A stretch of 64,000 bases of DNA from Euglena gracilis (Eukaryota). The stretch is taken from assembly GCA_039621445.1 (NCBI GenBank), contig CP154954.1, forward strand, positions 48,711,847-48,775,846, written 5' to 3'. The translations under genes were made by a program, and so were the position numbers. This document shows positions 3,601 to 55,773 of this stretch, piece by piece; position 1 is the stretch's first letter, and every line of letters starts with the position of its first letter. Under the pieces are notes generated by a model that worked only from the letters and a program-made list of their open reading frames with translations, had not been told where the DNA came from and made no database searches.

Positions 3601-5728
3601 ACAAGATGTATATGCTGCAGAAATTGGGCAATCGGGTGAGCGCATTTGATGTCAATATTTCAACATTATGTGCTGATCACATGTTTGCTTGCTTTTGCTC
3701 TGAGCTCAAGCCGAGCGCACTTTCTTCCAACTTTGCCACATCCAGACGGATGATCATCTCATCATGATAGATGAAATTTAACATCAAGGCTTCTTTGAAG
3801 TGATCGATTTGTGCCATTTAGATTTTTCACGATATTGCAACCAATTTTTTTTGACCTCTTTAATCCCTGAGCACCCATTCCAAACGGACCTCTTTGGATG
3901 TGTTGGCTTGATTTGTTGCTCACAACTACTTTTACGTTGCATGAATGATCAAATGCATTTTTGGTATGAAAGGATTTTAAGGTAATTTTACCCCCCACCT
4001 ATGGAAAAAATGGCCGAAAATGGCCGAAAATGGCCGAAAATGGCCGAAAATGGCAAAAATCGGGGTGTCAACTATAGGTGCTTGGTCGGGATCCACCTAC
4101 CCAGGGGGGGGCTTGGGGGACCACTTTTGGGGTCAATTTCGGGGTCCAAAAGTTCTTCGGTGTACGGTGCCCACTTTGCCCAACCCCCGACCCGGGGTTG
4201 CAGGGTATTCAGACTGATCTGCATGGTGTGCGCAGTTACAACTCTGCACCCAAAATCTGAATTTCGAAATTGAAATCTTCCCAAATTTTCTTTTTCTGAA
4301 GTATTATTTTCCTGTCATTTTTACGTTCCACGATCTTTGTTCAGGCTTTAAAATGCTTTGAAGATGAACGCCTGTGCAAGCTTTTCCATTGATTTGTTTG
4401 TTTGCCCCTGATCTATCAGTCGAATATTTGACAACAATGGTAATAAATTTTGCTTTTGCACAAGGGGTGTTGCAAAAAATTCTTGTTTTCATTTGTGGGA
4501 TTTCATTTTTCAGACCAGCCTGATGAAAAACATGAAAGTCACATTGGATCCAGGCTTTTGCTTAAGGACCCCCGGGTACTGGCTAGCCAATCGGCTAGAC
4601 ACTGGAAAAAATGGACTAGCTAGACCCCCCTCCCCCGGGGGGGGGGGGGGTCCGGGGGTCCCCCCAACTGGAATTTTTTTCCTCCAGTTTTTTTTCCTTT
4701 TTTTCCTCCAGCGCTGCGCGCCGAGGTGGAAATGAGGTTTTTAATAGGTTTTTGGCTGATTTTGTTCCAAAAATTCCCAAAAAAAGTTTCTGGTGCTTCG
4801 CGCCGGGCACTGGAAAAAATTTTCCACTAGCTAGCCCTGCCAGCAGACCCCCCCGGGGGGGGTCTGCTAGAAATCCCACTAGCCAAATTTGGACTAGCTG
4901 CAGTCCAGCCCCCCCCCCCCCCGGGGCACTGCAATCCCTTAAGCAAAAGCCTGATTGGATCGTTGTGAGTTTGGTGAGTAAATTGCTCGAAAATGTGCTC
5001 ATGTTTGTGGCAATGGTGACCAATCATCAGTAGTTGTTTGCCATAATTACCTGATTGAGAGCGTCCTATTGCGTGTCTTTTTTGTCCCTTTTCACACATT
5101 CCATCCTGGAAGGGAAGTTAAACCTGTTGGCTCAGGGCTGGCTGACGCGGCTTTACCAGTCAAATCGGCGTGACATTTTGGTTCCATCGTATGCCCTTTG
5201 TGACTCAGGATCAGATCCTGCAGCTGCAGCAGTTTGCTGTTTCGTTCAAGTGCCATCGCCGTCAATCCCCCCAATGTCGAACAATTTATATTTATATGTT
5301 TATATCTCCACAGAAAATATTCCACACTAGGTGGGCTAACATTTGGCAAGACAGTGCGCGCCAAGTTCAGCATCCTGACATCTGAGACCCAAGCCCACTA
5401 CAATCGCTCAGTCATTTAACCCCCCCTGAATAGAAACCCCTGGGGGCAACTATTCGGAACGTTGGTTGAAAACCGAGGGGGGGCTTCTATTCGGGGGGGG
5501 GGGGGGGCACTATTCGGAAAAGTGGTCGAAAACCAGTGGGTTCGAGAATTATCGAAGAAATTTCTTCGTGGGTCTACATGCCCAACCTTCCAAACCATGT
5601 CAAATCTGCTGCAAATGTTACTCTTGTGAATGCATGATCATTAAACGTAAAATCATCCAACCCTCATTTAGAGGTATTGCAAAAACTGGAGCCCTGCACT
5701 AGACATTTACCCCCACCCCGCACACCCC

Positions 5729-15177: not shown

Positions 15178-15596
15178 CATAGCTGGCACTTCGTTTAAAA
15201 CGAAGTCAAAAAAAACACGTTTTTAAAAAAAAACATGTTTTTTTTAAAAAAAACAAAAAAAACGCCATTGAGGGTCCAGGGCAAAAAAAATTTTTGCCTT
15301 TGATTTTAGGTTTTTTTGCCCATCCTCGGTCAGAGAAAGACACCAAATTTGGGATGTTTCAAGTTAGTTTGGAATGGTTTCAAGCCAAAATGGCAGAAAA
15401 ATGCCCTATTTTGACCATTCTTGTTGAAGACAACCAAAAGTATTGGTTTTGAGCTAAGATTGGTTCACCCTTGCGATCAAAGGCAAAATTTGGACCATCA
15501 TTTTCCCCTTTGTTTTTTTTGCCGTTTTTTTTGCCCGTTTTTTTAATAAAAAAACAAAAAAAACGTTTTTTTAAATAAAAAAAAACGCCAGCTATG
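15178..15596. mobile_element. hAT-type MITE with CAT...ATG ends
   Basis: TIR CATAGCTGGC...GCCAGCTATG; perfect 8-bp TSD ACGGGTTG (15170-15177, 15597-15604). Confidence 0.9.
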
Positions 15597-19623: not shown

Positions 19624-20312
19624 CAGGGTTGACGTTTTTTTTGTTTTTTTTTAAAAAAAACACAAAAAAACATGTTTTTTTTGAAAAGCAAAAATTGACC
19701 TTTTTCCTTGCGAAATCGCCATTTTTTGAGAAAATTTTTCCGGGGTGGTTCGGGTCACGGGGGGGGGGGGGTTCAGGGGGGAACACCACATTTTCGGTGG
19801 TTAAATTAGGAATCATTGAAAACGAATTTTTTGGGGAAAATCCCTTGTGGCGCCAAATTAGGAATCCCCAACTTAAAATTAGTATTTTGACACCAAATTA
19901 GGCATCACCAGTCCAAATTTTGCAAAATTTATGCCTCAAAATTATGAATCTACCTGAATATTTTGTCAGATTAGGCATCACCGGCCAAGTTATTTTTCAG
20001 AAAAAAATTGGCCGAAAAGGGTCTTAGGTCGGGTCGGGGGGGGGGTCACGGGGGGAATACTCCCTCTAAAGTTTTTTTTATGTGTGAAAGTATTTCCAAA
20101 TCTGTGTTTTCTGGTGCAAAAAATCATGCTTTCAACCCAAAAAAAAAGAAAAAAATGAATGCCGCAGAGATAAAAAATGAACTTTTTTCCAAAAAAAAAT
20201 TGCAAAAAATTTTTCCCCCAAACCCTCCATTACGTTTTTTTAAAAAAAACATATTTTTTTTAAAGAAAAAACATGTTTTTTTTGTTTCAAAAAAAACAAG
20301 CCGTCAACCTTG
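19624..20312. mobile_element. hAT-type MITE
   Basis: TIR CAGGGTTGACG...CGTCAACCTTG; perfect 8-bp TSD CAGGCAAT (19616-19623, 20313-20320). Confidence 0.9.
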
Positions 20313-21489: not shown

Positions 21490-24400
21490 ATGGGCTGCGT
21501 CTATTGTGTGGAGCAGTCAGAGGTTGCTATTGTTGAATCATGGGGAAAGTACGAAGCCACACATCTCCCTGGCATTCATTGTTTAGTTCCATGCAGAGAT
21601 CAAGTTGCCGGCAAATTGACTTTGAGGACACGAGAACTCCACATCAAAGTTGAAACTAAAACAGCTGACAATGTGTTTGTGACAGTGCTCATGCTCCTTT
21701 CTTCATCCCTTGTAGTTATTTTCCCATTTTATATCAGAGCTTGAAAGAACTTTTTGAGGATTTTGCCTTTCACTTTTTTTCCATGCAAAAATTTACCGAC
21801 ACTAACAGATTCTGCAGGGGCGCTGGGACATGCGAGCGAAGCGAGCGGCCCGGTGCCCCTGCTGTTAGTGTCGTTCTAAAAACCTATTTTGTGTGCCCGC
21901 ACGCCTGTCTTGAATTTCATTCTACCGAACCGCCTGGATGGAAATATTGCCAAATAAGTGGTTTCCTGAATGGAGATCCACCGACCTAAACAGATTCCGA
22001 TGTCTTGGAAATCGACCAACCTTTGTTTCATTTTTCTGAATGACATTTTGTTCCATTTTGGGCATTTTTGGCAACATCTACATTTCCCCAAATTCTCGAC
22101 CAATGAAACTGAAATTCCTGATTGTTAGATGATCAGGATCGTATCCGCCTGTTTCTGTTTCCACCAAAGAGTAGTAGCCTAGTAGGTCAATCTTTGTTCT
22201 TAATGGGATCCCCACCCCATTTTGCACAGCCAAAGGAAAAACCAGTGAAACCAGATTAGGGGAACCCCCTTTTCCATTTGTTTTATCGAAGCTTTGCATC
22301 GGTCACAAAGCTCAGTGGCCAGAACACAGGGTCAGTGACCTGAGGTTGTGGGTTCGAGCCCCACTGTGTGCATTTCCATTTTTGCACTAATGTGAAATGA
22401 TGTGCCTTGGGTTCAAAAACTGCATTCACAGTGGGGTTCACAATGGGCATTTTTTGAAGAAAAAAAACAAAACAATGTGCTCTTTTTAAAAAAAACATCA
22501 AAAAACAAAAGGGGAATTTCATTGAAAAAAAAACTCGTCCACACTACGAAACAGAGTCCTCGGGATCCTTTTTTCACCACAGCAGGTGCTTTTTGCATCT
22601 CAGCAACAAGAAACTCCAGGGATGAAGGGGCTTTCAGACTGGCCTCCCACACGAGGTTTTGCCGCTTGGCCACGAAGAACAATCTATAAAAAAAATGAAG
22701 AATCAAAATTTCGCTTTTCAACTTCACCTATTTCAACATTTACTGATTTTAGCAGGGGCACCGTTACAATGAAACGGGTTTAAAGACAGGAGCCCGTTTC
22801 TTTGAAACGATTTTCAGAGGGGCGCCTTTACTATAAAACGGTTTTCTGAGGGGCGCCGTTTTCTTGACAAAAACCACAAAAAAAAAACGGGAAAAAAGCG
22901 TCCGTACGGGTTACTAATCGTCGAACGTTGTTCAAGACAGGCGTGCGGGCCCTGCAAAATAGGTTTCAGAACAATCGACTGCACTAACAATTTTAGCAGG
23001 GGCGCCGGAGGCGCCAGGCCGCCCGGCGCCCCTGCTAAAACCGCTAGTGGCAGTTGATTTTTGTATAAAAACTTTTTTTCTGGGCTCGATGTCTGTCTTG
23101 AATTTCTGCTGATTTAAATGGAATTCAGGCTAAAATTGTTTAGGTCATTCCATTCAGGCGCCCGCTTAGGTCAGTCAATTTCCAAGCCGTAGAAATCTGT
23201 TGCTGGTCAGATTCGGAATTTTTAGTGAAATTTTGGACATTTTTGGAGTTTTACTTTTCTTCGAAATTTTGGGCACCATGGAGTTCAGGGAGCATTTTTA
23301 GCCTAGTCAGAGTGAATTTTTTCGGTCAGAGGGCAAAGATGACAGTTTTATTTTCTTGTCAATTCAAAGTTTTTTGTCCATTCTGACTTGCATGGCTGTC
23401 ATCGCCCACATAGCTGGATGGAGATGTGTGTTCGAACTGCACCATAGTTGGCAATTTGTTTTTTTTTGGATGCTGTTTTTTTTTCAAAATTCAACAATGT
23501 TTTTTAAAAAACAACAAAAAATACCCATGAGGTTTTGCACAGAAAAAATTTTGAAAGCATATTTTCACTCATTTTGGCAATTTTGGGTCATTTCTGCCAA
23601 AAAATCCTTCCACAAAAAAGTGAAAAAAGTCATAACACAACATTGTTTTGCATTTTTGGATGGTTTTGACCATTTTTTTGGCAGTGTTTGAATTTAGTGT
23701 CAGCGGCCCAAAAAAGGCTGAATGCCAAGATTTTCGAGGTGTTCGCTGTGAAGTGTGTAGTGTTTGGTGGCACTGGAAGTGTGTGGATCTCCGACATCCA
23801 TCCAGATTTGGGTGGATGTGCGAGGGCTGTCGCAACGCTATGCAGTAGTTCGGTTTCAGTTGTGCAGTCCTGGTCGTGATTGTGTCTGGGTTATTTTTGT
23901 CACGTTTCTGTACTTACCACGTTTTCAGCTCTTTTTGAGCTCTGGGACACTAGAACCAAACCTGCGTGTGCAATTCTGCATTCACATATTCGTCATCTGT
24001 TCCATCAGTTACCAGGCAGGTACAAGTACAAGTAAACGGGCGCCCCTCTGAAAACCGTTTTAAAGAAACGGGCGCCTGCCTGTCTTGAAAACCGTTTTAT
24101 TGAAACGGATGCCTGTCTTGAAAACCGTTTCATTGTAACGGCGCCCCTGCTAAGTTCCGTTAATGTCATTAAATTTTTAGGACAGGCGTCGGGCCCTGGA
24201 AATAGATTTTAATGGAGGCTGGGTGGTCAGGGGGGAGATGAATTTGAGGGGGGGTCTGGCCGGGGCGGCGCACGCGGCGCTTTTGCTACGGGCCAAATTT
24301 AGGACATTTTTTAAAAAAAATTGAAAAATAAAAAATTTCGGTAGTTTTTCAGACCGGGACAGCAGTTGTTTAATGAAATAATGTCGAAAAAATTCAGTCC

Positions 24401-27400
24401 AAGTTTTTTGGGGCATTTTGTGGGTCAGATTGTTTTGTGACCGCCTAGGCAGAGGGGGGGGGATGAGGGGGGGTCGGGTGGGGGGGGGGGGCGCCACAGC
24501 ATGCGTTGCGCCACGGCGCCAGGGGGGGGGATGGCGTCCGGCAAAATGGCGCCATCTATACAAACAAGCCATTCACCTCCAAATGTTGAGTCTCAAATCA
24601 TTTTCTGAACATCCACTTAGGCGGCCGGATTTGCACTCAAGTTTTTTTATGATTTGCGCACTTGCACTGCAGTATTCAAGCCGGTTCAGTCACCCCGTCG
24701 GCACCAGTTCCAAGTGTCGTAACAGCCGGTGTGTGCCTCTCACCTGTTTGATGTACGAGAGCACCAGTCTCACCCTCGGCCCTATTCACGTCACTCGGTA
24801 AGCAGCATGCACACCAAACCACCGGGAGTTAATGCCCTACAACACAGGGGTGTAACAGTTCATTAACTGTCTTCCGTGTGTCAGGGTACAGGGTCCCAGA
24901 AATTTCGTAAAATGGTCGAATTTGCGCAAATGAGCCCATTTCAAAGAAGAAACCCTTAAGTGCAAATCCGGCCGCCTAAGATCCAGCAAAAAATCAACCA
25001 ATGTAACCAATATGGTTTTTGCATTTTCAGAACGTCGCAGGGCAAAAAAACACCCCATTCAATCAAGTGACCACCCCAGAATGACATGAAAAATGAAAAA
25101 TTAAACACAATAGTGGGGAACACAGGGGGGAACACAAACGTGTTTTTTTTACATTTTTGGATTTTGGCAAAATTTGCTTTTTCTTGGCATTTTTGGGATT
25201 TTTTTTTTGAATATCTGAAAAATATCTGATCCAAAAAATTCCTCATTTTTTGTCCGATTTTCCGCCGACGCTTAAAATTTTGTCAAAAAATTTCCACTTT
25301 TGTAAATAATTGGCATTGCATTTTTTGTCAACAAAATGCTTATTTTTATGCAAAATGAGAAATTTTCCCCGGCGGAGCCGAAAATTCCTTTCCAATGTAC
25401 ATCCTGGGAGATCCTAAAGAATTTTGTATGCAATTTGCGGTTTTTTTTTGTGGGTTTTTTTGTTTTTTTTCTGTGGTTTTTTTTTTGTTTTTTTTGTGTT
25501 GTTTTGCGTCGTGTTTTTTTGGGGGGTTCCATGTGTTTCCCCCCTGGTAAACAGCGTGGAAAAGATTTCAAATGAACAATGTAAGAGTGGGATCGAATGT
25601 GTAGGCGCCACTGACCTCCCTTCAATGGTTGGGTTTTGGTGCGGGTGGGTGGTGTATCACACCGAGAGGCCCCGAAACAGTTTTGAGCGGAGAGAGTGAA
25701 GCAAAGGGCTTTAGAATGGAAAGAAAGAGTGCGACACCAACCGTCACCATCATGTTCATGCAGGGTTGCTTGCATTCCTTGAATCTGTTCTGTCATATCC
25801 CCCCCCCCCGATCTTGTCCCATACCTTGGCCCACAACAGTCCCGGTGTGGGACAAGATCGGGGACAACAAGGGGGTCAACAAATTTCCTTTTGTGGACCC
25901 TTCCTTAACCCAGGCCATTGGCCGGGCATGAGACAAGATTGGGGACAAGATCAAGATCGGGGGGGGGGGATGATAATGAGGAAGGACCCCAAGATAGTTC
26001 TGTCTCAAATTAGTCCCAGACCCTCCCCCATTGTTCCTGACCTGAACTCTCAACCAGTTGACCCCCCACCCCAAATGGCCCAAATTTCATTGATTTTTCA
26101 TCGAAAACCCCCCAAAAATTCAGTGCCTTTGGCGCTGGAACCCTGCCCCTCTCTGGGAAGTCAGCCGGTCCGAGTGACTAGCGAAGTCAACTGTGGGGGG
26201 GGGGGGGGTCCAGCAGCCCCAACCCTCCCCAGTTGACAAACAAAGTCAACCGAACCGGGGGCGGTCCGAAAATGAAGTCAACCCAACTATCTACCTCCAA
26301 GGATGGCTGGAGACAAAGACCTATCAGAGGCAACTGCGCTTCCATAAGCCTGCAGTTTTCTTTCAAGACCGTAGGCGTCCAAAAAATGCAATTGGAACGA
26401 AAATTGAGAGCAGCAATTCCAAATTTAAGGCCTGTTTTTTTTTTGAAAGAAAGCATTTTCTTCTTTTTCAAAAATATACGGAACATATTATCCCTGGGTA
26501 TAGTATTTTGTGCATTTTTTTGCAACGTTCATGTTTCCTTTTTTTGCAAGTTTTTTTTGCAACTATGCGCAAAACCAAAAGAAACAAATGAATTTTTACA
26601 TTTTTATATCTTTCAAATGTGAACTCCTGCGAAAGGAGACCAGGCAGAGGGGAGGGGTTGCAGCGCGCGCCGGGAGGTCCAGTGGGGCAGAACATGCGGT
26701 GCTTGCATTGTGGCGTGGGCCAAAATTTGGTCATTTTCTTCGGAAAAATGTTGATGTTTTGGCCATTCTTCGGGTCGGGATGGTGATTTTTCAAGGAAAC
26801 ATACAGGAAAAATAGTTTTAATTTTCGGGCTATTTTACGAGGGGTCAAAATTTTTTGAAACCCCCCAGCAAGGCTGGCAGTAAAAAGAATTTTTTTTTGA
26901 AAAAAGAACACAAAAAAATCCAACAAGGGTTGGAGGAATATTCTTTTGAATGGGAATTTTGGTAGGGTTTTCCCATCGGCCATCACATACACAGCGATTT
27001 CCAGGGGGATTTTGCCTGTGCCCAGGCTGGGCCGCCGGGCTGCCGGGACGTGCCTCCGGGTCGCCGCTGGGCAGGAGAAAAAGTCCCTTTTCAGAAAAGC
27101 CATCTTTTATGGCATTTTTTAAAATTCAAATCCCGACCCGGCTCGGCAGCTTGGGGTCGGCCTGACCTCCCAGCCTGGGCGCAGCTGGATCTGGTGGAGC
27201 ATGCTGTCCTGGCTGTTGGCCTGATGGCCCAGCCCGGCCTGACTTCCTTGCATTCCACCCTAAAAGGGGCTGCTGCCGGGGGGGGGGTTCCCATCCCTCC
27301 TAGTTTAGTCGTCCTCTGCCAAGGAGCTGCATATTTGAAGACCAAAAAAAATCTTCATTTTTGCTGGGCTTTTTGAAAAACTCAACATCCAGTATTGTTG

Positions 27401-30400
27401 AGCACCACACGTTCAGGGCAGACATTTATCAAGCCAAAACAAAATTTGTTGTTTGGGCGACTGGGACCAACAGACTGGATCAAAATGTGAACAGCAGTTT
27501 CAACCGAAATTGCAGCGGTGTGACGCTTGGCTTTCAGTTGTTGGGAGAGGGGGAGGGGACAGGTGGAAAACAACAGGGCAGGGATGGGATGCAGTAGCCT
27601 GAGAAACAATATTGGTTGAAACCCATGTTCAGCAGCATTTTGCACGCAGAAATATAGGGGGTGATAGCTTCGGAACCAGTCGTACACCTGCAGTGCGGTA
27701 TTGTGTCTCTTCCCTCCCCCACGTACATAACATCCCTGATACCCTCAAAACTCCCCTGGTGTATTTATGGGGAGGTCCAATAAAGGCAAAATCCCCTGGA
27801 CTGGTCACCAGCGGCCTTGGACGGGTCACTGGAGGCCAAAAAAAGTGCGATTGGGAGGGAGGGTGTTACTTAATTGGGGTGGCATTTATGTCGGGAGTGG
27901 TTCCATATCTATTAAAATATGCTGTGTGGTACAGTGTCATGTGGTGTGAGGAAGCTGGACGATGCAAACTTAAAAACAGGAGGGGCTCGTTGCTGGGTTT
28001 TGCAATGCGAGTACCCCTGGGCCAAGGTGCTGGACACCGGCCTGCGGCAGGCCTTCTATGAGCTGTCCCATCCAGGCTGAATTTTGAAGGTGAGGCCGAC
28101 CCCGCTCCGGGAGGGGGGGTAATGCCTGGCTGCCAGACACTCAAAGGCCCTCCGACATCCCCCTCTGCCGGGGGTTGGACATACTCAGCCTAGTCCCATC
28201 CAGACCAGCAGCTGCACTCTTATGTCCTGAACAATGCCCACACAGGCGCTTTGGTTGGCTCTGAAGGGGGAGGGTTGCACCGGTTATTGCTTAAGGGTTC
28301 GCAGTGCCCCGGGGGGGGGGGGCTGAATTCAGGGGGGAGAAAATTGCACCGTGCAATTTTTGCAGTTTTGTGCAATTTTCGATTTTCCTGAAATGTGCAA
28401 TTTTTGGCAATTTTGTGCAATTAATTGCACATGGCCCAGGATATTTTGTTTTGGAAAATGTCAGTTTTTGATGCCTTTGAGAGCTTACCGGTTTTTTTTT
28501 TTGCTGGGAAACTGATGTGCGTAGTGAAAATTTCCGTTCAAAGGCTGTTTATTGTTGGTTTACTCAGTGTGCGAACCCTAACTTGAGTCCCCTGCCCAAG
28601 TGTCTTCCAACAGAAAAGGAAAAGGAAAAAGGAAGAAAAAAGGAGTTTTTTTATTTTTTTTGGAAAACCGTGCAATACGTTTTTTTTGGTTTTCGTGGTG
28701 CATGGTCCCTGGCATTCTTGTGAAGTCTGTCCATGCCTCTACACGTCGTCGGGTTTTCAAATTTCTCAAGGCGCAAGGTCGCCCCCTGACCCTCCCCCCC
28801 AAAGTAGGGGGCACCCGCTGGAACTCTTGCAGGGTTTTCCCCCTCAAGAAAAGGACCCTGTTACTGTGCAGGGACGCTTTTAAATGGTGGTGTGAGCATC
28901 TTTTGGAAATGAAAAATTTTTTAGCATCGGAAGTACAGCGCATGACACGTTGCGTCTTCCGCTGGATGATGAAAAAATTCAGGATGTCCACTATGATGCT
29001 GTTCAATGGTGACATTGATGGCCGCTTTGTTTGACCGCGGCGGACTGCTGCCCAACAGGCTTCACCTGTTTTGCTGTGCCGCGCTGTCATTTTTGGATGT
29101 TCTTGACAAAGGAACAAGATGAGTCTCCAAGTAGGTGCATGTGTGCATGCTCGTTACAAGGGATCCAATGCAATCTCCAAGTATGTGCAATTTTGTGCAA
29201 TTTTGTGCAATTTTGTGCACTTTTGTGCAATTTTTTTTGCACTGCAATTTTTGACCTTCCGATGTGCAATTTCTCCCCCCCCCCCTGCTGAACTGCAGCT
29301 AGTCCAAATCTGCCCAGTGGGAATTCCAGTGGACTCCCCGGCGGGGGTCCGCCAGCAGGGCTAGCTAGTGGAAAGATTGAAAAAGATTGAATTTTTTTTC
29401 AAAACTTGCCAAAAATGGCCATATTTGGCCATGTTTGGGATTTTTTTTTGGAACATTTAAAACCTGATGTCCACCTCGGCACACAGCGCCGAAAATTTTT
29501 TTCCAGTCAGGGGGGACCCCCGGACACCGGCATTAAGTGAGCGTTGGTTTTGTACAGAGGGGTCCCTCCTCCCTCGGAGTAAGAGGCGGGGTCCAACCCC
29601 CCCCCCCCCTCAGGCCCCCTCATTTTCTTCTTGCTCCAAGAAAACATCCAAGGCTGGGGTCGAGTGGAATACCAAAGCAAATAGAAATAAGGGAACAGTG
29701 AGAGGACACATCCATTTTGATTGTGTGATCAGTTCTGAGTCGGACGTTCACAACGCTGGAGAGCCTTTGTGACCTGGTCAGGGCCCAGATCCCGAAGTAC
29801 GAGCTCGACCAGCTGTTTTTGGCGAAGGATGAGATCGCCAAAACCCTGAAAACCGAGCTGGAGCATGAAATGAATCAGTTTGGCTACACGATCGTGCAGA
29901 CCCTCATCACGGACATAGACCCTGCTCCGCTTTATGCTTGAAACCACAACCTCATCAGCTCATCGTCTATGCTTTGGAAATTCTGTCGGTGTGAGTTGAT
30001 TTCCACCATCGTCATAAAGCGCTCGTTTAGAGAAAACAAAAGCAAACAAACGCATACGCACATATCCAACCTCCGCATGTGACCAAGTGTGCCCGAGTCA
30101 ACCTGTGCTTTTGCTGCGAAAGCGCATTAAAAAACTCCTCCAAAAGGGAAGCACTGTTTCTTTTGATTTGACTTTAACATGCCACGTTGACGTCGTGTAC
30201 TGTGGCATTTTTTTTTCTTTTTCAATCTGGCAAGCGATTTCCAGAATACCAAGCATGCTTCAGAATCAGACGCAACGGTGAAGCGTGCTGGACAGGCTTC
30301 TTCAAAGCAGTCTCCTCTCCTCCAACTTAGCAACAAACTGTTACCGGCTGACAGGGATAAGATCAGACAGACCGCAGGAGAGTTCGACAGACCTGTCCTA

Positions 30401-32250
30401 TATGGTGGCCAGATGTTTCTTTTAAAGGCTGGCGACCCGTGGGCTAAGTTACCCCCCCCCCCCCCACCAGAATGCTGTAGTTACCCCATAGCACAAGGCA
30501 CATTAGTTTGGTTCAAAAGGGGTGTTGTTATCATAGAGGGGGGGAAGGGGGGTTTCCAGAAAAAAAAGAAAGATGAGTTGGGGGATGGCCACAGGCCCCC
30601 TCTCCCCACCACCCAGGGTATTAAGTGAGCGTTGGTTTTGTCCAGGATGGAAGGGGTCAAACTATTGGGGTCCATATCCCCCTTTCCCCTTTCAGACCAA
30701 GGGTGAGGGGGTGTCCGGGACCGACCCAGAAACCAAAATTATTTTTCTTTGGCACTTCGTGCCGGTGAAGATGAAATTTTGAGTGTACGGTTGGCCGATA
30801 CTTTTTTCAGCAAAAAAGTGCGCGAGAACGCCACTTTTGGGCCTGTTTGTCAAGGGCCGAATTATTCCGGTGCATTCCACTAAAAAATTTTTGCCCAGGG
30901 GAAGTGGGGTCCGACCCTCCCCTCCAGGGGGAGGGAGAGGGGTCCAGACCACCCCGCCTCCCCTCCTCTCTGCCACTTAAATACCCTGCCCCCACCGTCC
31001 GTCACCCCCCCCCCCCTGTGCTGGCCCGGAGGGCATGGAATTCGAGACTGTGGTCACTGCTGCAATGTGCGAAAACGTTGTACACAGAACTTCCCAATTT
31101 TTTCCTGTTGCCATCTTGCCTATGTTGATTACTCTCTGGGAAACTGCAGCAAAAACAATAAAACCTTCTTTCAAATATTGTTCACAAATTACGTGATCTG
31201 ACGCTCCATGAAGACTCTTCCAGGTTACCAAAAGCCGTTATTTATAACTCATTGTTGGCCTGGATGCAAAGCAAACTTGAGTGCAAGGACTCCATAGATT
31301 GTCAAATGAAGCCTGGGGCTATGAATGACATCAACGCTGCCCAGCGATTGCGTGTCGCCTTCATACTTCCTTTCCTCTGTTCGTTGCCGAGTCGGCTACT
31401 TGAATTTTTCCAACATTTCTGAATCTTGCAGCAGTTTCCAAAATCGTTCAGTTACGACTCTGCCCTGTCTCTGTCAGTGAAAGGCAGTATGGCAACGGCT
31501 CATGACAAGGCGGAGGCGGAGAAGTTGGCAATTGTCAAAGCAGCTGAGGCGGATGCCGAGAGCAAACGGCTCTCTAAGGGAGAGGGCCAAGGGATGGCAA
31601 CACTATCCTCTACATCAGCAGAATAGTGGAAGTGCAGTGGAATTGGGGCCTCTTTCCTGTTTCCCGAACCACCCCCCCCCCCCCGAAGAGCTTCCCCCGC
31701 CTACCATGATCCAAGGTGGCCACTTATTTTAAGGAAGCTTCCCATATCGTGGCCGAAGTTTATTCAAATTTGCATGATTCTGAAAAGAGTTTTACATGTT
31801 CTTTCGTATTCCCAGGAAACCGTTTTGTGCTGTTTGTTATGTTTACACTCCCCTGAACCTACGAAAAGAATTTTTAAGATTTACAAAGTGCAAAGTTGTG
31901 TCCACAAGTCCACACTTTGTGCTGCTCTTGTATCAAAAGGTCCTCCCCCTCGTTGGGCGTTGGCCTGGCCGAGCAACGCAAGGCGATCATTATGGGCCTC
32001 CATGACTCCATTCGAATGTTCACAGCCCGACAGAGGTACCCCATAGACGTTACCCCTTCATTTACAGGACAGCTGTGTGTCCTTTGTGTTTTTTTTTTCG
32101 TAGTTGAGGAGATGCCTCTCCCCCACACTAACATCACGCAGTCGGAGGTGATGGAGCTGCTCCTCATGAATCAGTACTTCGACACCCTGAAGGAGATGAC
32201 CGCTTCCTCTCACGCGAAGACAATCTTTGTTCCCCACGACCCGGTCGCAG
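21490..32250 (+). CDS. Band 7/SPFH domain protein, hypersensitive-induced reaction (HIR)-like; multi-exon
   Basis: Exons read by eye: 21490-~21684 (MGCVYCVEQSEVAIVESWGKY...ETKTADNVFVT), 28051-28075 (AFYELSHP), 28204-~28230 (DQQLHSYV), ~29770-29923 (LVRAQIPKYELDQLFLAKDEIAK...GYTIVQTLITDIDP), ~30269-30289 (DATVKRA), 31321-31358 (MNDINAAQRLRVA), 31497-~31575 (AHDKAEAEK...AEADAESKRLS), ~31956-32026 (GVGLAEQRKAIIMGLHDS), ~32124-32250 (VMELLLMNQYFDTLKE...TIFVPH). Motif order matches plant HIR / bacterial SPFH proteins. The exon(s) between 21684 and 28051 and the last exon were not resolved. A pyrimidine tract + AG at ~21464 precedes the ATG. Confidence 0.92.
22301..22372 (+). pseudogene. tRNA-like sequence (decayed tRNA or SINE head) inside the HIR gene intron
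   Basis: A-box-like AGCTCAGTGG and B-box/T-arm GTGGGTTCGAGCCCCAC at tRNA spacing; acceptor and anticodon stems are imperfect. Confidence 0.5.
22750..24152. mobile_element. TIR element (~28-bp TIR) carrying a PHD-finger-like fragment
   Basis: TAGCAGGGGCACCGTTACAATGAAACGG ... CCGTTTCATTGTAACGGCGCCCCTGCTA with subterminal AAACGG/CCGTTT repeats; no TSD seen. Confidence 0.65.
23720..23848 (+). pseudogene. PHD-finger-like coding fragment
   Basis: VRCEVCSVWWHWKCVDLRHPSRFGWMCEGC fits the C-terminal part of a PHD finger (C-x2-C..W.H-x2-C...W.C-x2-C), then a stop. Confidence 0.55.
24616..24980. mobile_element. TIR MITE with apparent 5-bp TSD
   Basis: ~26-bp TIR CTTAGGCGGCCGGATTTGCACT...AGTGCAAATCCGGCCGCCTAAG flanked by ATCCA on both sides. 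Confidence 0.75.
28073..28192. mobile_element. hAT-like MITE forming a whole intron of the HIR gene
   Basis: CAGGCTGA...TCAGCCTA inverted ends, perfect 8-bp direct repeat GTCCCATC (28065-28072, 28193-28200); removing 128 nt restores AFYELSHPDQQLHSYV. Confidence 0.75.
28330..29287. mobile_element. hAT-type element nested in a TTAA-flanked repeat
   Basis: CAGGGGGGAGAAAATTGCAC...GTGCAATTTCTCCCCCCCCCCCTG with TGCAATTTT subrepeats; flanks GCTGAATT / (G)CTGAACT. A related left end lies at ~14887. Confidence 0.7.
30614..30988. mobile_element. hAT-type MITE
   Basis: CAGGGTATTAAGTG...CACTTAAATACCCTG; flanks CCACCACC / CCCCCACC (7/8). Confidence 0.8.
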
Positions 32251-35200
32251 GCCGGGCCATCCCCTGGAGTTGTGTGATACCGCTGCTGGTCCGTTGCTCA
32301 CTCCAAAAGTGTTGGACAGGGTGGTGCATGAACCCCCACCCCAAGACAAAGCATCTAATTGAGAGCATGCATCCATTTGAGGGCCCCTGGGGGTTGCTGA
32401 GCTTGGGTTAGAATTCGGGCTGCCTTGCTAATTCCCTCCGGGGGCTGTGCAGGCTGGGCCGTACCAAATGGGACAATTGCCAAAAAATCACCTGCAGAAC
32501 ACAGCTTTGAAAAGAAAATGAGCGTCTGGTGACTCCCCAAAACCCCCTGAAAACCCTCAAAAACCCTTTTTTTTATATACCATTTTCGACCATTTCCCAG
32601 TTTTTTTTGGGTTTCACTCAGCAAAAGGGGGCTGGATGTTGGGCTGGTGGTACCCCGGAGGGGGGTGCTGTGCGGCTGGACCGGGCCAAAATCGACCTCT
32701 GGGGTCTGCAAAACCTTAGAGAGCCAATGACCCATACCTTTTAATGAGGTGCCAGCACCGATGGCATTGGTAGCCCAGCGATGATTCATTCTTCAAATGA
32801 ACTTCAGATGAAGGGGTTTTCTCTGAAATGCGAATTCCCTCCACTAAAACCACGCGCCAGAGAGAGAAGGGATACAGAAAACATCGCACTGTCCCCCAGA
32901 CGCCCCAGATGGAATTACAGCATTTTTCACACCGAATATTGCGTATGCCGTATCCTGGGGTGCTTGCTGGCGATGGGCTTTTTTAGCCTGCCCAAACGAG
33001 GGCATTTTCATTTATTTCATTTCGTCGAAAAAAGTGCTCAAACACAGTCAAAATTGGTGAAATGAAATGAGCGTTTTTCTCCTTACATGGTTTCCGTGCA
33101 TATTTTTTTGACTGAAATTTCAGTCCAGCTGCATTTGGATGATTTCCTTTTGGGCTGTAGCCCGGTCAAGCCTGGCAGTCACCTGGCCTCCTCCCCGCCG
33201 TCCTCCGCTGTGCTAACTGTATTCCCCATCCTTCAATTTGCGGGAAAAACAGCCTGACACATCACACCACATGTGGTGGCTCGCCCTCGCCCAGGGCATC
33301 GGGCAGCAGATACGACAGGGTTTGCTGGAGGCTGGTCAAAGCTTTAAAATGGACTGAACTCTGTCCCCGACCACTGCTGTCTGGGGGCCTCCCCAGTCAG
33401 GGCGTCGCTGAAGCCAGAGAAGGGTACCAACTGCCTGCCAGAAGGCAGCCCCCGAAGCGACTACCTGGAAGGTGTCAAAGTTGATGTGGGCCAAAGTTGG
33501 ACGAAAATGCACCTGGCACACATCATTGGTTGATTCCCAGTTGTTTTTTTCCTCGCAGTTTTCGAGCCTGGCTGGACCTTGGCCCCATTCCGATCGGGAC
33601 AGCCAGAAATTTTTCCAGCCAGCCCGAATTTCCTTTCCTCTGAACTTCCTCTGAGCTGGATCCTTCACTGGAGGGTTACCCCCTCAAATAATACCCCCTG
33701 GGGTATTTTTTTTCCGCCCGATGTCCCAGGAGGAGGAGGGTATTATTGACCCCAAAATTTTCGAAATTTTTCGAAGTCCCATAGGACCCAAAATAGCACC
33801 CAAACCCCCCCCTTTGGTCATCTATTTTACTTTCTCATGAAATTTAGCATTTTTGGAGGCCAGATGGTCCAGAGAAATCGATTTATCGTCAAAGATTAAT
33901 ATTTTTCTACGTACATTTTCAGGTCAAAATCCGGGGTGTCGGCCCGAAATTGGGGGGGGGGGAATTAAATCGGTCACCGAAGTCCCGCCCCGGGGGGGGG
34001 GTATTATTTGGGGGGAGGGTTTTGTTCAAAGACGTCCTGTCCCCAGCTTTTGACCCTCCTCACTCACCCGCCCACCATGCCCACCCTGCCAATCGCACGT
34101 GTCTTGCCCGCCTCCCCGCAATGTACAGTACCTGGCTCAGGCCTTCCCCTGCAAACCATCACCTAGGTTAAAGTTTGTGTTTCTTGCTTCCTGGGGGGTT
34201 CGAAATCAGTTTGGTTGCCCAGCCGGATTCTTAAGGTTCTCAGGGGGTTGGATGGGTGAGTTCACCCTTGCCTTGAGGGTGTCCACATTGGATGGCTGGT
34301 AAAAGATGCAAACCTTGGTTGGGTGTGGGAGAAAGTTCCCCAGGATCTCAATTATCATTGAGCTGACCCCCCCCCCCTTCGCCAGCGTCTTGGTCTCGAG
34401 GCAACGTGGAACCTAGGGAAATATATGTTTCATTCTCCATCTGCTTTCTTCGAGTGAAATTATGGGGGCGGCCCTGTCACTGGCCTGTGTCTTCTTCCAC
34501 TGGCCTACACCCACCCCTCAGGCACTGCCTTTGAGCAGAGGTTCTGTAACATATGCCTGGGCCTCTGAACCCCGCACCGCGCATCCGCACCTTCACTGGC
34601 GTGCCCTTTTCTTGACCCAGCGTTTTCATTTGCATTTCCATCCCAGAAAAAAGCTATTGCACAAGGACAGCTGAAAGTACCGAGGAATCTTATTTTATCG
34701 AGACATTGCTATTTTCTTTGGAGGCACTGGCTGCAGAAGGTTTCATCATCCCCGAGAGCCCTCTGTCGACCCCGCGACAAAAGGATATTCCTTTGGGGAT
34801 GGGCCATTGCCTAGTACCCAAAATACGGCTTGATTTGGATCAGAATGCGTTTCATTTTCTGATCACCGCTCATATTTCTCGGGCAAATGACAAGAGCAAG
34901 CCCCCCCCCCCACCCCTCAACCGAGTTGGAGGAGATCTGGAACCCACTTGGCGGGATTGGCCATTTTTTTTTCCTGCGGAAGGGTTCCCCCCACCCATGC
35001 CAGTGCATGGAGACCGGGGAGTCCAATTGTGTCCAGAACGACTCCATCTCCGGAGAAAATGCCTGATCATAATTGGTGGATGATCACCAAAGCATGAGGT
35101 GATGAATTTGGCGAAGTTCCAGAGTGCTCAGTGTGGCAGCTGATGACTGTGGTTTCAGCGCGATTTGGTTGCCATACTGTTGCTTGTACAATTTATTTTG

Positions 35201-35810: not shown

Positions 35811-36178
35811 AGTGTGCCAAAAGTTTGTATACCCCCTCGGGTTTTGTGGGCGGGTACTCAACCCCAAGCCCCAAAGCCCATGTTACCGATGGGCTGTGGT
35901 GATGGTGTGCGCACACACCCCAGTATTGACCACCTCGCCCCCTTGCCGGGCTGGGGTTTGAGTGCCAAACAAAAAGGGCCACGGATTGAAAGGTTTTGCT
36001 CTTGCACAATTGGCCTCAGATTTGCACAAAGCCCTGTGTGTGGCAGAGGTTGGTGCTGCTGTGCGGCAGGTCTGTGCAAGCATTCACACACCATCACCAC
36101 AGCCCATGGGTAACATAGGCTTTGGGGTTGCGTGCGCGCCCACAAAACTCGAGGGCGTATAAAAAATTTTGGCACACT
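35811..36178. mobile_element. Foldback MITE with ~100-bp imperfect inverted repeats
   Basis: 35811-~35910 is the approximate reverse complement of ~36084-36178; no TSD seen. Confidence 0.65.
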
Positions 36179-36490
<312 letters not shown>

Positions 36491-36718
36491 CCTTGGCAGG
36501 GTCAACATCAGAATGAAAAATTGAGAAATGAAGTTAAAATATGCACCGTGAGGACTTGAGTTCGAGAATTTTATCCAAAAAACATATGTCACAAAATAAT
36601 GAACCCCTGATCCCAAAATGATATGCCCCCGGTGCATTATTTGGGGCACTGGCGTTTATTTGCAAGAAGGACAGGTAATGTGCGCATGTGTTTTCCCACG
36701 AACCTCGCAGGGGAGGCG

Positions 36719-44935
<8,217 letters not shown>

Positions 44936-46235
44936 ACCCTCCCTCCGAACGTTAAAATCGCATGATTTTCCTTTTGAGCGGAGACACTGCAATCCCCCTC
45001 CTCCCGCGGATTTCTTTCGACGGCCTTGTTCTAACCTGGCCGGCCCCATATCGCATAAAGGAACATGGCCAGTGATCAAAATTGATCTTGGACCATTTAT
45101 CTTTGTGACGACTTGCGATATTCTTTGCGCAAAACCAAACCGCCCCAAATGTGAACACTCACCCCATCATATTCCCTGATTTTGACTTTGCCTTTTTTTG
45201 GAGCCAAATGGGCTTTCCATTGCCTATTTTGAGATTATTCTTTTCACTGGTTTTTGATTTCACATCTGAAGCATATCCCAAATTCGATCCAAGTCATTGA
45301 TGTCATTTATGGTGAAATATTAAGAGCGATGATATCTTTTGTTTGGATGAAATTTCTAACTCTACAACAACTGCAATGCCACCCGGTGCACCCGGGCAAC
45401 AGTAGTGCCATCTGGGGGGGGGTCTTGGGGGTTCCGCCCAAATGTGGATCCAGGGTGTGGGCGGCTGAAATTGGTTCTGAAGTGCCACCACTTTAAAATG
45501 TGCCTTTTTGTTTCATTGTTTAATGTGTTCATGTCGGATCATCCGTTGACCTAACCCCTGTGTGATCCTCGGTGAATGGGTGGGAGGGCCTTCGACAGAG
45601 GGTGGGTGGGTGGGTTTGGTGGGGTGGTGGGGCATGGGTCAAACCAACCCGACAAACCGGAGGATGGGCTGTCCGAAAAAATTTAAGGGGATTTGGCCGA
45701 GTTTTGGGAGGCTTTTGGCTGGGTGAGTGGATGCACCCCCTGGGGGGTGCGGTTGTTGGTGGGTGGGTGGGGTTTCGGGGAAAAAAAACGGTTGGGTGGA
45801 TTTGGGCCCGGGGCACCCCTCCCATGGCCACCGAGTGAATCTACGTGCCGGATGTGTAACGCACCCCTCCCCAGAGGTTGTAACCACAGCAGCACAACGA
45901 AGATTTTAGATGGCGCTCCGGCTTTAAAAATTGCAAACAGGAAACTCGCATGAAACAGGTTTTTTGGAGGTTGTGGAAATTTTGTGGCGTTTGATTCGGA
46001 TTTATTACGGTATATGGAGTTTGGCTTACGGTTTCAGTTTGCAAGTTCAAAAACCAATTGATTATTATGTGCTCATTTCTACGTGTCAACAATTGGCAAC
46101 ATATACAGAATTCTGTGCACATTTTGTGTACATTGTAATGTTCATGGTTTGAGTGCCAAATCCCCCCTCCTTTGAAATTTCTGTCCCATGCTGCCAGTTC
46201 CCCCTCTCACCATAGCCCTCCTCCACCCGCAACAG

Positions 46236-48922
46236 ATGGATCTGGTTCGCTCACCCTGGAACTGGAGCATCTGGAATGCGCTGGCCGGCGTGTCAGGCAC
46301 TGCCACCCCTTCCGAGTCAGGGGTGGTCGTGTGTGATTTTGTCTTCCGCCTCAAGCACACCACACACTGGGAAAAAGGTTGGTTTGCTTGGACCATGCCA
46401 TTGCTTAACACCTGTCCCACCCAACCCAACGGGGGGTGACTGACTGGTTTTTTCAGAGTGACTGACTGGGTTTTTTTTTTGTCCCAGAGCCCCCCCTCTG
46501 GGGGGGGGTGGGGTCGGCCCAAAAATGAAAAAGTGGCTGGTCTGGCGCCGAAGGCGCCGGAATTTTTTTGGATTTTTGAGACTTTTTGGCAAATTTTCAT
46601 AGCCTTCTGAAGAGTGGCCGATCCCCCCCCGGGGGGGGGGGTAAAGTGACTGACTGGTTTTTTTCGGAGAAAGTGGCTGACCGGTTTTTTCAGAGTGGAA
46701 AGTGACCTCCCCTCCCCCCGGGGGTCGCTAAGCAATGGTATGGCTTGGACCACAACTTTGCATTTTTGACTTTTTTTCATTTTCCCTTTGCACCTGCCTT
46801 GCCAAGCGCTTGGCGCTGATTTACAAGAATCAGCGGGGAATCGGGGGCCCATTATTACGACAGCTTTTGCCAATTCGCACAAAAGGTTGCCAAAATCGCG
46901 ACCTTTCTGGACCGAAAGCCCCTCTGACTCAAGGTCACACACGCCAAACCCCGACACCACCCTCTGAGGTTTCCGGCACCACTGCCACTGGCGCAGACCG
47001 TTCACGGCGGGCGCCACCGGGCCCTCCCAGTACTTCACCCTCAAGGTGCGGAACGGCACCAAGCTGGACGCGCCGCTCTTCGTGCTGGGCAAGGGTCAGG
47101 ACCCTGGCCACCGGCCAGCCCACCCCCCGGCAGCGGAGGTCTCTCCCACATGGGGCCCACCCCCGGCAGCGGAGGTCTCTCCCACATGGGGCCCACCCCC
47201 GGCAGCGGAGGTCTCTCCCACATGGGGCCCACCCCCCGGCAGCGGAGCTCTCTCCCACATAGGATGGAGGTGCGGCGATGCGAAGCCGGATGGCAGGGTA
47301 TGGAAGGTTCAAAGGGGATTTCGTTTTCCGGCAACAACACCGGACAGGAACTAAAGGGTTGGTCAAAAATGATTGGAAAGACCGAAGGCAGTGAAAAATT
47401 GGTTCCAACCAAATATCACCAGACACATTTGTGGTTTTTGTGCTTTTTTCACTTTGCATTTTCCGCTTTATAAATTTTCTCTTTGTTGCAATCCCCCCCA
47501 AAACGCTTCGGATTCTGCTGGAGAAAAAATCTGATTTGAAGTTTTCCTTATTCTTTAGATTCTCTTTAGTGGCGAGGTTTACATTTCAGCACGTCCAGCA
47601 CGTCCCAAAAATGTAAAACCGCATTTTTGCGGCTTTTGGTGAACCTGAATAATCCAGACAATCCAAGAGCTTTTTTTTTTGCAGGTGTTGTGCCGCATTT
47701 TGGAGGGTCCCTCCTACGTCCCCATCCCTTGGTATCTGTTGGTACATTTTGCAAATGAATTATGCAGGTGCTTTTTGGAGAAAGGGATGTCGTTGGGTGT
47801 GGCCTGGATCGTTTGCATAAAGGAGAGGCGCCAAGCAGTGTTACGCCGCTTGGAACCCTGGCTGCTTGGGTTGTGTTTGAGACTGATTGTCCCGTGATAT
47901 GCGTCGATCCCCGGCTGGGGGAGGCGCTGCCCCCACAAGGAAGGGCAGTACGCCATGGTGGAGGCGTACCCAGGGTTCGATATAAGGAGGGTGTCACAGC
48001 TGTTGGTGGGGGTCCTGAGGGAGTCTGGACCTCCCCACCCGCCAGGGGTCTGGATGGACCCGGGGGGAGGTGCCTGGGACCCGTCAAACGGTCAACTTTT
48101 CCTTCCGGCGCTTTCCGCCGAAAACTTCGGCAATTTGAAAGAGTTCTGCCCAAAAGCAAACCAAAATGGCATTCTGGGTTGAATTTGGGAGGAGCGTGCC
48201 CTCGTTGACCGGAGGGGAGGGAGAGCCTGACTCCCCCCTCCCCCCTTGCCACCCATACGCCGAACCCTGGCGCACCTCCACTTCAACGATGGCGGCGTGG
48301 CGTCCTTCGTGCCCGCCACCACCGCCGGGCCCTCGCCCACCCCCCTGCCCCTCCGATGGCCCCCCCCCCCCGCCCGACCTGATAGGCGGCGCCTGAGCCA
48401 TCGCTGGTCCCTTCCGTCAACCCTCCCCCCCCGGTCGTCTTGGGGCAGCGGTTGTCGCGGCGCGGCAGCACACGGCGCAGGGGGATGGCCGCGGGGGCGT
48501 ACGCCCGGAAGCTGTCCGACTTCCCTGCCGGGGCCCACCCCCGCAACGCTGCCCTGCGCTGTTCTCCCTCGGGTTGCAGGAGGGCTGGGGCGACCTGTGG
48601 AACTTCCCCCAGATGGGCGGATTAGTTGCAGGGGGAGCTGCATTGCACCCAGCGTTGCTGCCGAGAAATTTCCACATTGAGAGGCGGAGATTTACCTCCC
48701 CCCCCCCCCCGGCCTTGCCACACGGCTTGCCCATGGCCCCTCCCCCCTCAGCCGCGTTTCCCCTGTCCTTTGTCGTGGCGGCTGTATCAACGAGGGACTG
48801 GGGGCCCCATCGCAGCGACCCGAAGGACCCCTCTCTGCGGGTGCTCACCATCCCGAAGACCATCGGCGGCCGCCTGTACTTTTCCTTCGCCGAGCCCGTG
48901 GTGCTGTCGGTGGTGGCCCAGG
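46236..48922 (+). CDS. N-terminal exons of the GH64 beta-1,3-glucanase region, copy 1 (cut off from the catalytic exons by the duplication junction)
   Basis: Exons 46236-46296, 46997-47094 (PFTAGATGPSQYFTLKVRNGT..LFVLGK), 47570-~47611, ~47685-47730, ~47901-47967, 48274-~48330 (YLHFNDGG), two or three small exons, ~48792-48922 (LTIPKTIGGRLYFSFAEPV, matching the GH64 'P..SGRIYFS' motif). Confidence 0.7.
47120..47260. repeat. 36-bp tandem repeat, about 4 units (single unit in copy 2 at ~58370-58400)
   Basis: Unit CCCCGGCAGCGGAGGTCTCTCCCACATGGGGCCCAC; intronic. Confidence 0.9.
47971..48269. mobile_element. Decayed hAT MITE that constitutes a nonconventional intron
   Basis: Starts CAGGGTTCGATATAAGGAGGG and ends CGAACCCTG; interior is collinear with the MITE at 57290-57693; flanks GCGTACC / GCGCACC. 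Also present in copy 2 (~59112-59396). Confidence 0.8.

Positions 48923-49899: not shown

Positions 49900-55773
<5,874 letters not shown>

Follow-up and report, generated by a model that had tools for sequence, protein, structure and literature searches.

Where the nonconventional introns of euglenids come from has been an open question since 2014, and the third intron of a gene of Euglena gracilis raises it in concrete form. The gene lies within a stretch of 64,000 nucleotides of contig CP154954.1, hereafter the window, and encodes a membrane protein of the band-7/SPFH kind, presumably of the 'HIR' type, the name used for the gene below. Among euglenid nonconventional introns, HIR intron 3 belongs to the slidable hybrid type, and its insertion footprint is unusually complete. 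The explanation that we regard as probable is that it represents a relatively recent insertion of a short element resembling a MITE (miniature inverted-repeat transposable element), of unassigned superfamily, which would be removed from transcripts as a nonconventional intron.

Borders of HIR intron 3

The HIR gene extends from 21490 to 33357 on the forward strand and comprises 11 inferred exons and 10 introns. It was delineated by tblastn with proteins P0001 and P0002 and by homology-guided placement of junctions, the model being built on homology and not on RNA junctions. Homologues of the gene carry the precomputed Pfam assignment PF01145. The proteins nearest to its product stem from transcriptomes and assemblies of euglenids, among them EukProt entries with RCo... 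identifiers and Eutreptiella; because these closest proteins are euglenid and every intron displays the peculiar borders typical of the group, the window is read as euglenid nuclear DNA.

Intron 3 is flanked on the forward strand by exon 3 (28024-28069) and exon 4 (28198-28235), and its borders carry an exact direct repeat of 11 nucleotides (nt), GTCCCATCCAG, whose copies at 28065-28075 and 28193-28203 lie 128 nt apart. The upstream copy consists of a putative 8-nt target duplication (28065-28072) plus CAG. Directly inside the repeat, CAGGCTGA (28073-28080) and TCAGCCTA (28185-28192) are complementary at seven of eight positions, the single mismatch being the outermost pair, C28073/A28192; they form the ends of a putative inserted element of 120 bp (28073-28192, forward strand). 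A preceding sequence-only reading of this DNA had described a direct and an inverted repeat at this place. Both are confirmed, the direct repeat being 11 nt long instead of 8 (the 8-mer of that reading plus CAG) and the inverted repeat being matched at 7/8. By our arithmetic, an exact 8-mer repeat combined with an inverted repeat of at least 7/8 has a chance of about 6 x 10^-9 per register.

Removal of any 128-nt block starting from 28065 to 28076 yields the identical mRNA, as established by spliced mapping with P0002 and P0001, and the intron therefore has 12 equivalent registers. The protein that results from the 128-nt removal is colinear with these euglenid homologues, gap-free. The earlier claim that excision of 28070-28197 or of 28076-28203 gives the same mRNA thus holds, down to the peptide that had been quoted for it. 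The first of these registers reads N3-CAG...CTA-N5 followed by A. The second, the sole GC-AG register, starts with GCTGA and would shift the end of exon 3 to 28075 and the start of exon 4 to 28204.

The published nonconventional code of Euglena reads N3-CDG...CH'G-N5-6, followed by an exon that begins with a purine (R), with base pairing behind the motifs (Nomura et al. 2025, PMC12501133; this and the other papers are cited from the portions of their text available to us). The most conserved nucleotides of nonconventional introns are CA at +4,+5 and TG at -7,-6 (PMC3935182). In the register 28070-28197, intron 3 agrees with the code in its 5' signature (ATC-CAG at 28070-28075), in its 5-nt 3' spacer, in the purine at the first downstream exon base (A28198) and in its pairing, 8/10 positions being paired from +4 onward against -6 inward. 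It departs from the code at the 3' motif, which is CTA (28190-28192) and not CH'G. The terminal dinucleotides of this register are AT..CC, that is, neither GT-AG nor GC-AG. The 8-mer that precedes CAG equals the 8-mer that follows the 3' motif only in this register, the one predicted by the nonconventional consensus. If the machinery took its distance from the outermost pair that actually forms (28074/28191), 126 nt would be excised and the frame would be altered.

A minimum free energy fold joins the ends of the intron through 28074-28080/28185-28191. The interior of 28073-28192 is rich in G-runs and C-runs and forms one long hairpin when folded. No inverted repeat extends beyond the first 8 nt of the ends (10/30 matches) and the intron holds no tandem repeats. 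An Rfam search of 27500-28800 returned three matches, all far under the gathering scores, and detected no known intron-borne RNA. Tandem duplication of an exon was considered as the source of the intron and rejected, its interior being unlike the flanking exon.

Comparison with the remaining introns of the gene sets intron 3 apart. GT-AG borders occur in none of the 10 HIR introns in any protein-compatible register, and a GC-AG register is available to intron 3 alone. Pairing from +4 onward against -6 inward reaches 8-9 of 10 positions in eight of the 10 introns, intron 3 among them; in introns 2 and 5, whose junctions are possibly misplaced, it reaches only 5-6. Several introns use paired triplets other than the canonical ones (CAC/GTG, CAT/ATG, GGG/CCC and AGA/TCT). 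The border repeat measures 11 nt in intron 3 and 0-3 nt in the other nine. Similarly, the 8 nt before +4 and the 8 nt after -6 are identical at 8/8 positions in intron 3, as against 1-5/8 elsewhere in the gene.

Two inferred micro-exons, at 25739-25757 (about 19 nt) and 30268-30289 (about 22 nt), located solely by short conserved peptides, have nonconventional introns on both sides. Intron 6 (30290-31320) has a perfect 8-nt inverted repeat, which starts with CAGGCT, and its 8-nt flanks match at 4/8 positions.

Mobile elements of the same build in the window

Elements of comparable construction are present elsewhere in the window. A scan for exact 8-nt direct repeats, 30-3000 nt apart and with an inverted repeat of at least 7/8 directly inside, retained 20 of 7,963 pairs, compared with 1-5 in each of 20 Markov-1 simulations. 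Controls with a shifted terminal inverted repeat (TIR) gave 9-15 matches, which are not independent because long inverted repeats pass when shifted too. Nine of the 20 start with CA. Eight of these end with TG, and the ninth, which ends with TA, is intron 3; two of the nine represent one insertion present in both copies of a segmental duplication. Of the other eleven, most are artefacts of tandem repeats or low complexity, or their inverted repeat stops at 8 nt. A second scan collected pairs of CAG plus stem and stem plus CTG and counted the identities of their flanks: 7-8/8 identities were found for 8 of 214 pairs, whereas both shifted controls gave 0 of 214. The eight correspond to four loci and three independent insertions, each counted on both strands. 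A spectrum of duplication lengths obtained by searching for the TIR first was dropped as evidence, being confounded by palindromic flanks and tandem repeats.

The clear-cut elements, all given on the forward strand, are a 403-bp MITE at 4551-4953, with a 17/17 inverted repeat starting CAGGCT and an 8/8 duplication; a 404-bp MITE at 57290-57693, which has CAG...CTG ends and combines an inverted repeat matched at 17/18 with a target duplication matched at 8/8; a 349-bp MITE at 46394-46742, with CAT...ATG ends and an 8/8 duplication, which has a duplicate at 57243-57985; a 222-bp element at 42988-43209, with CAG...CTG ends and a 7/8 duplication, which has a duplicate at 53424-53645; and a 958-bp element at 28330-29287, within HIR intron 4, with CAG...CTG ends and a 7/8 match between its eight-nt duplications. 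Further elements lie at 19624-20312, 15178-15596 (CAT...ATG ends) and 1875-4084 (CAA...TTG ends). The CA/TG of nonconventional introns are the ends common to all elements of the window with 8-bp duplications. In addition, the four free-standing CAG...CTG loci, which represent three independent insertions, all match the published nonconventional motif when read in one orientation or the other, and the 4551-4953 MITE matches it in both.

Past mobility in this genome of elements that have CA...TG ends and make 8-bp duplications is demonstrated by two pairs of filled and empty sites. The 57290 element sits inside one copy of the duplicated 46394/57243 element, and the other copy contains the 8-mer once, as an empty site (46433-46440). 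The 28330-29287 element is nested in a MITE of the 4551 family inside HIR intron 4; this host, when freed of the element and one duplication, is colinear with the reverse complement of 4551-4953, and DNA contigs of two read sets (X1 and X7) from elsewhere in the genome join 28305/28310 straight to 29287.

Summed X1 and X7 DNA depth over parts of HIR intron 4 (28259-28685 and 29113-29539) amounts to 2-5 x 10^5, as against about 110-180 for single-copy DNA; given this depth, the elements in intron 4 belong to repeats with thousands of genomic copies. The segmental duplication comprises 42900-47000 and 53300-58000, about 10.4-10.9 kb apart, with 43142/53578, 42988/53424 and 46386/57235 as corresponding positions. 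Its copies are about 87% identical over one element, and the 404-bp MITE was gained by one copy afterwards.

Intron 3 shares with these elements the length of the duplication and the CAG start. Like intron 3, the free-standing MITEs (4551-4953, 57290-57693, 42988-43209 and 28330-29287) have 8-bp duplications and CAG...CTG (CA...TG) ends; unlike it, they have inverted repeats of 10-17 nt and lie in non-coding DNA. The terminal hexamer CAGGCT is common to intron 3, the 4551-4953 MITE and HIR intron 6. A module of about 50 nt in the interior of intron 3 resembles the 46394 MITE family (local score 44, shuffle maximum 23); a likeness to the 42988 element was rejected, its score being equal to the shuffle maximum. 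Intron 3 also differs from the 28330-29287 element in copy number. Contigs that cross intron 3 and both flanks (X1, 26227-28322, depth 108; X7, 27278-28317, depth 179) have the depth of neighbouring single-copy contigs, in contrast to the bins of 28330-29287, which exceed single-copy depth by about three orders of magnitude. Reads were mapped here at a likeness of 80, so that diverged copies are included. Summed DNA depth in the bin containing the intron (27832-28258) is 283 for X1 and 421 for X7, compared with 154 and 232 in the preceding bin, and it rises to about 312,000 and 497,000 in the following bin, which contains a high-copy repeat.

The sequence-only reading had called intron 3 a young hAT-derived intron. 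What stands is the architecture of a TIR insertion with an 8-bp duplication, distinct from the nine other introns; the superfamily is unproven. Elements of the hAT superfamily have ends that follow YARNG and make 8-bp duplications, and intron 3 accords with them in its 8-bp duplication and in an end that starts with CAG. However, CAGGC matches the consensus at four of five positions and misses the fifth, sister elements in the window start with CAT or CAA, and the inverted repeat is matched at 7/8. Nor is an 8-bp duplication unique to hAT elements: the Merlin superfamily has 8-9-bp duplications, and Merlin families with 8-bp duplications are documented in E. gracilis (PMC8101967), together with a terminal 5'-GG that is absent from the CA...TA/TG ends of intron 3 and the window elements. 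The open reading frames of 1800-5400, read by eye with no Pfam scan made, contain nothing transposase-like. Membership of the hAT superfamily is therefore possible and, in our judgement, rather doubtful.

Origin and removal of intron 3

According to the insertion reading, a 120-bp non-autonomous DNA element with CAG...CT(G>A) ends and short terminal inverted repeats would have inserted into a coding exon of the HIR gene and duplicated 8 bp of its target. The inverted ends would pair in the pre-mRNA, and the nonconventional machinery would cut 3 nt ahead of CAG and 5 nt past the 3' motif, with the upstream duplication contributing its last 3 nt as N3 and the downstream duplication its first 5 nt as N5. 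The element and one equivalent of the duplication (3 + 5 = 8 nt) would thereby be removed, exactly restoring the original reading frame. We infer that intron 3 is younger than the other nine HIR introns, since its eight unconstrained positions are unchanged and the other introns show no trace of a duplication.

Read depth is consistent with removal. In one RNA read set (X21), 406 of 5,742 mapped reads are at least 99% alike, and 5,063 fall below 90%, most of these being poly-G reads from 24454-24495. Calculated per exon base, the depth of this set is about 70x in the bin of exons 3 and 4 (84 exon nt), comparable with 67x for exon 5, 74x for exon 9 and 56x for exons 7 and 8 together; about 28x would be expected for the exon 3/4 bin under full retention of intron 3, according to our arithmetic on bin means. 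The bin depths, on which this argument is founded, suggest that intron 3 is removed from mRNA and are consistent with efficient removal.

Several observations weigh against the insertion reading or one of its parts. As regards removal, none of the 12 registers fits the published code, and the change from CTG to CTA in the intron EaNC-INT1 caused intron-retaining transcripts to accumulate (PMC12501133). Among the 15 of 334 read joints listed, none is from the RNA runs. Transcripts retaining intron 3 could also be lost to decay and thus be missed in the depth, because retention brings a stop codon right after the exon. As regards the element itself, the inverted repeat is just 8 nt long with one mismatch, compared with 10-17 nt in bona fide MITEs, and the folding energy of the intron is not exceptional for its composition (z of -0.08 and -0.60 relative to shuffles). 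The TIR family assumed by the sequence-only reading is not borne out. The 64-kb window contains no second copy of the 120-bp interior, and the depth of the bin leaves room for no more than about 5-6 additional copies at 80% likeness or more, a figure that is an upper bound because paralogous exons and G/C-run modules add to the depth. The interior is thus nearly single-copy and without a TIR family, which is half of what the earlier reading had named as evidence against itself. There is no family-level identity between intron 3 and the window elements, and with other elements the ends share CAGGCT alone. Finally, an intact duplication is a loose clock that does not tightly bound the age of the intron, because the 46394/57243 insertion keeps 8/8 in both copies of a segmental duplication that is younger than the insertion and has itself diverged to 87% identity. 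The earlier description of the intron as young accordingly survives in a relative sense, with respect to the other introns of the gene.

The CTA end is not decisive against nonconventional removal. Splicing in the published knock-in experiment was impaired by any single exchange within CAG or CTG (PMC12501133). However, the strict code fits only intron 6 among the HIR introns, and RNA depth is similar in all exon bins. In E. agilis, moreover, 61.2% of the nonconventional introns fit the code and 38.8% miss it (PMC12501133). We judge that intron 3 is probably removed by the nonconventional pathway. One new feature of this intron is its 3' motif, CTA, since the same change put an end to nonconventional splicing when it was assayed in the published work. 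The CTA end constitutes a natural experiment on the code: either the code admits more variation than the knock-in results imply, or the hybrid intron is truly spliceosomal.

Under the latter alternative, intron 3 would have the same origin, but the spliceosome would now remove 28076-28203 as a GC-AG intron, a true hybrid rescued by its 11-nt repeat after CTA had broken the code. A GC...AG register is indeed present and gives the correct mRNA. The 3' end of this intron is also plausible, being C-rich, with 13 pyrimidines among the last 20 nt, nine of these C, as described for conventional introns of E. gracilis (PMC11170887), and RNA depth suggests removal even though CTG-to-CTA abolished nonconventional splicing in the assay. 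Its 5' site is poor, however. GCTGA, with A at +5, does not match the E. gracilis consensus, which is GTGTG for conventional introns and for the GC-AG class has only G at +5 as a prominent position (PMC11170887). Conventional introns account for none of the nine other HIR introns, and nine of the ten introns miss the code and are apparently still removed, so that missing it does not exclude the nonconventional pathway. Hybrid introns, with border motifs of both kinds, make up 0.8% of E. agilis introns and were judged by the authors to be processed nonconventionally (PMC12501133). We consider removal of intron 3 by the spliceosome unlikely, and the rest of the probability falls to mixed or inefficient removal.

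The sequence-only reading had further supposed that the duplicated target supplies the spliceosomal sites. This is not the case, as neither GC nor AG derives from the 8-bp duplication: the GC belongs to the element itself, just behind its CAG, and the AG lies in the exon's CAG next to the target. The GC-AG register exists only because the target happened to precede CAG, the triplet that also opens the element. The dual reading requires this 3-nt coincidence, which is expected by chance in 1 of 64 cases. As to the suggested route to INTERMEDIATE introns, the dual register does exist, but the proposal restates a published hypothesis and a published case, tubA intron 5 (PMC3935182). A combined GC-AG and nonconventional reading is not new, and intron 3 adds to it one example and no mechanism.

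Alternatively, no transposon would be involved, and the 128 nt would be filler DNA from the repair of a staggered double-strand break, with the repeat created by fill-in and the ends fortuitously spliceable. Such an origin was proposed for the only published comparable case, gapC intron 4 of E. agilis ACOI 323 (PMC4770533), and it would suit a nearly single-copy interior, a short inverted repeat and a direct repeat of 11 nt instead of a clean 8. On the other hand, it requires a 7/8 inverted repeat to abut the direct repeat exactly by chance (about 4 x 10^-4, by our arithmetic), and the interior holds a module of a local MITE family. Transposition in this window, moreover, makes exactly 8-bp duplications at CA...TG ends in non-coding DNA, where these ends are not selected by splicing. 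We consider filler DNA an improbable source of intron 3. That it is an old nonconventional intron whose long border repeat is due to chance, selection or gene conversion is very improbable indeed, for although the majority of introns in euglenids can be called 'slidable' (84.4% in E. agilis, PMC12501133) and half of the repeat is coding, all eight unconstrained positions (3 spacer nt on the 5' side and 5 nt on the 3' side) equal their exonic counterparts, and the border repeats of the remaining nine introns measure only 0-3 nt.

Published precedents and the eight-nucleotide spacers

The closest precedent for the border anatomy is gapC intron 4 of E. agilis ACOI 323 (Milanowski et al. 2016, PMC4770533), a nonconventional intron which, like HIR intron 3, is bordered by a direct repeat, in its case of eight nt and exceeding those of the other introns in that study. 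Its recent gain was shown by strain comparison, the intron being present in one strain only, whereas the gain of HIR intron 3 is deduced from its structure; its authors favoured double-strand-break repair. The closest precedent for the alternative registers is tubA intron 5 of E. gracilis, described as a 'C/I intermediate', which likewise has direct CAG repeats and several registers, one of them GC-AG. Its repeat is 3 nt long and allows four registers, compared with 11 nt and twelve in HIR intron 3, and the available text reports no repeat of the size of a target duplication. The authors judged it most likely nonconventional, with the GC-AG register as a chance by-product (Milanowski et al. 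2014, PMC3935182).

Outside euglenids, introners and MITE-derived introns of Micromonas, dinoflagellates and others (PMC11282704) follow the course proposed here, in which a TIR element and its target duplication become an intron, with the splice signal drawn partly from the element and partly from duplicated or flanking target. They differ in being multi-copy and removed by the spliceosome, whereas HIR intron 3 is nearly unique and most likely removed nonconventionally. For euglenid nonconventional introns, a MITE origin was still a suggestion in 2025 (PMC12501133, Discussion); target duplications are not discussed in the available text of that paper, where the word 'duplication' occurs 0 times.

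A CAG...CTG element with an 8-bp duplication satisfies the nonconventional code by construction. This leads us to a broader proposal, which is tentative and which we would not yet call probable: that an 8-bp target duplication may be what the fixed spacers of the code share between them, the 3 nt that precede CAG being one half and the 5 nt that follow CTG the other, and that nonconventional introns may descend from still-mobile CA(G)...(C)TG MITEs that make such duplications. Insertions of these elements into exons would then be silent from the start, since the machinery would erase the element and one duplication from the RNA. HIR intron 3 would be one of them, caught intact, and its CTA end and GC-AG register could show the hand-over of a damaged intron to the spliceosome.

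The 8-bp duplication would provide a simple reason why the spacers of the code sum to 8, and it makes the MITE hypothesis testable genome-wide with published intron sets. What the window offers is the combination, within one stretch, of a putative exon insertion with a full 8-bp duplication in the register of the code and of mobile elements with like ends and the same duplication length. The interest of a link between MITEs with 8-bp duplications and nonconventional introns is high only if it proves true genome-wide. Taken singly, the origin from MITEs, the 8-nt repeat of a newly gained intron and the GC-AG/nonconventional dual reading are all in print already. Neither the 3 + 5 = 8 argument nor a named euglenid MITE family of this type was found in the literature searched; supplements and subscription papers (for example the 2021 J Mol Biol circular-RNA paper) were outside its scope, so that priority there is possible.

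A few further observations concern the HIR gene and its surroundings. Along its full length of 214 residues, a protein that EukProt labels Eutreptiella braarudii matches the product called on a 221-kb ENA contig and JGI metagenome proteins (P0001/P0013). Exon 5 of the HIR protein is 94-98% conserved between the window and these Eutreptiella-labelled, ENA and JGI proteins. A metagenome scan with exon 5 gave 19 loci, all 49-63% identical, none of them euglenid. In the last HIR exon (33315-33375), one set of eight substitutions recurs in about half of the RNA reads of X21 and is also present in a DNA contig of lower depth (34 of 134 in X1); a diverged allele or close paralogue of the HIR gene is expressed. 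At 24454-24495, thousands of RNA reads from X21 and a second set (X24) pile up with long poly-G loose ends, most likely a poly-G sequencing artefact caught by a G-rich stretch and not expression. A long microsatellite of the (TG/CA)n type occupies 35858-36655 and reads on the minus strand as a 265-residue Cys/Val 'ORF'.

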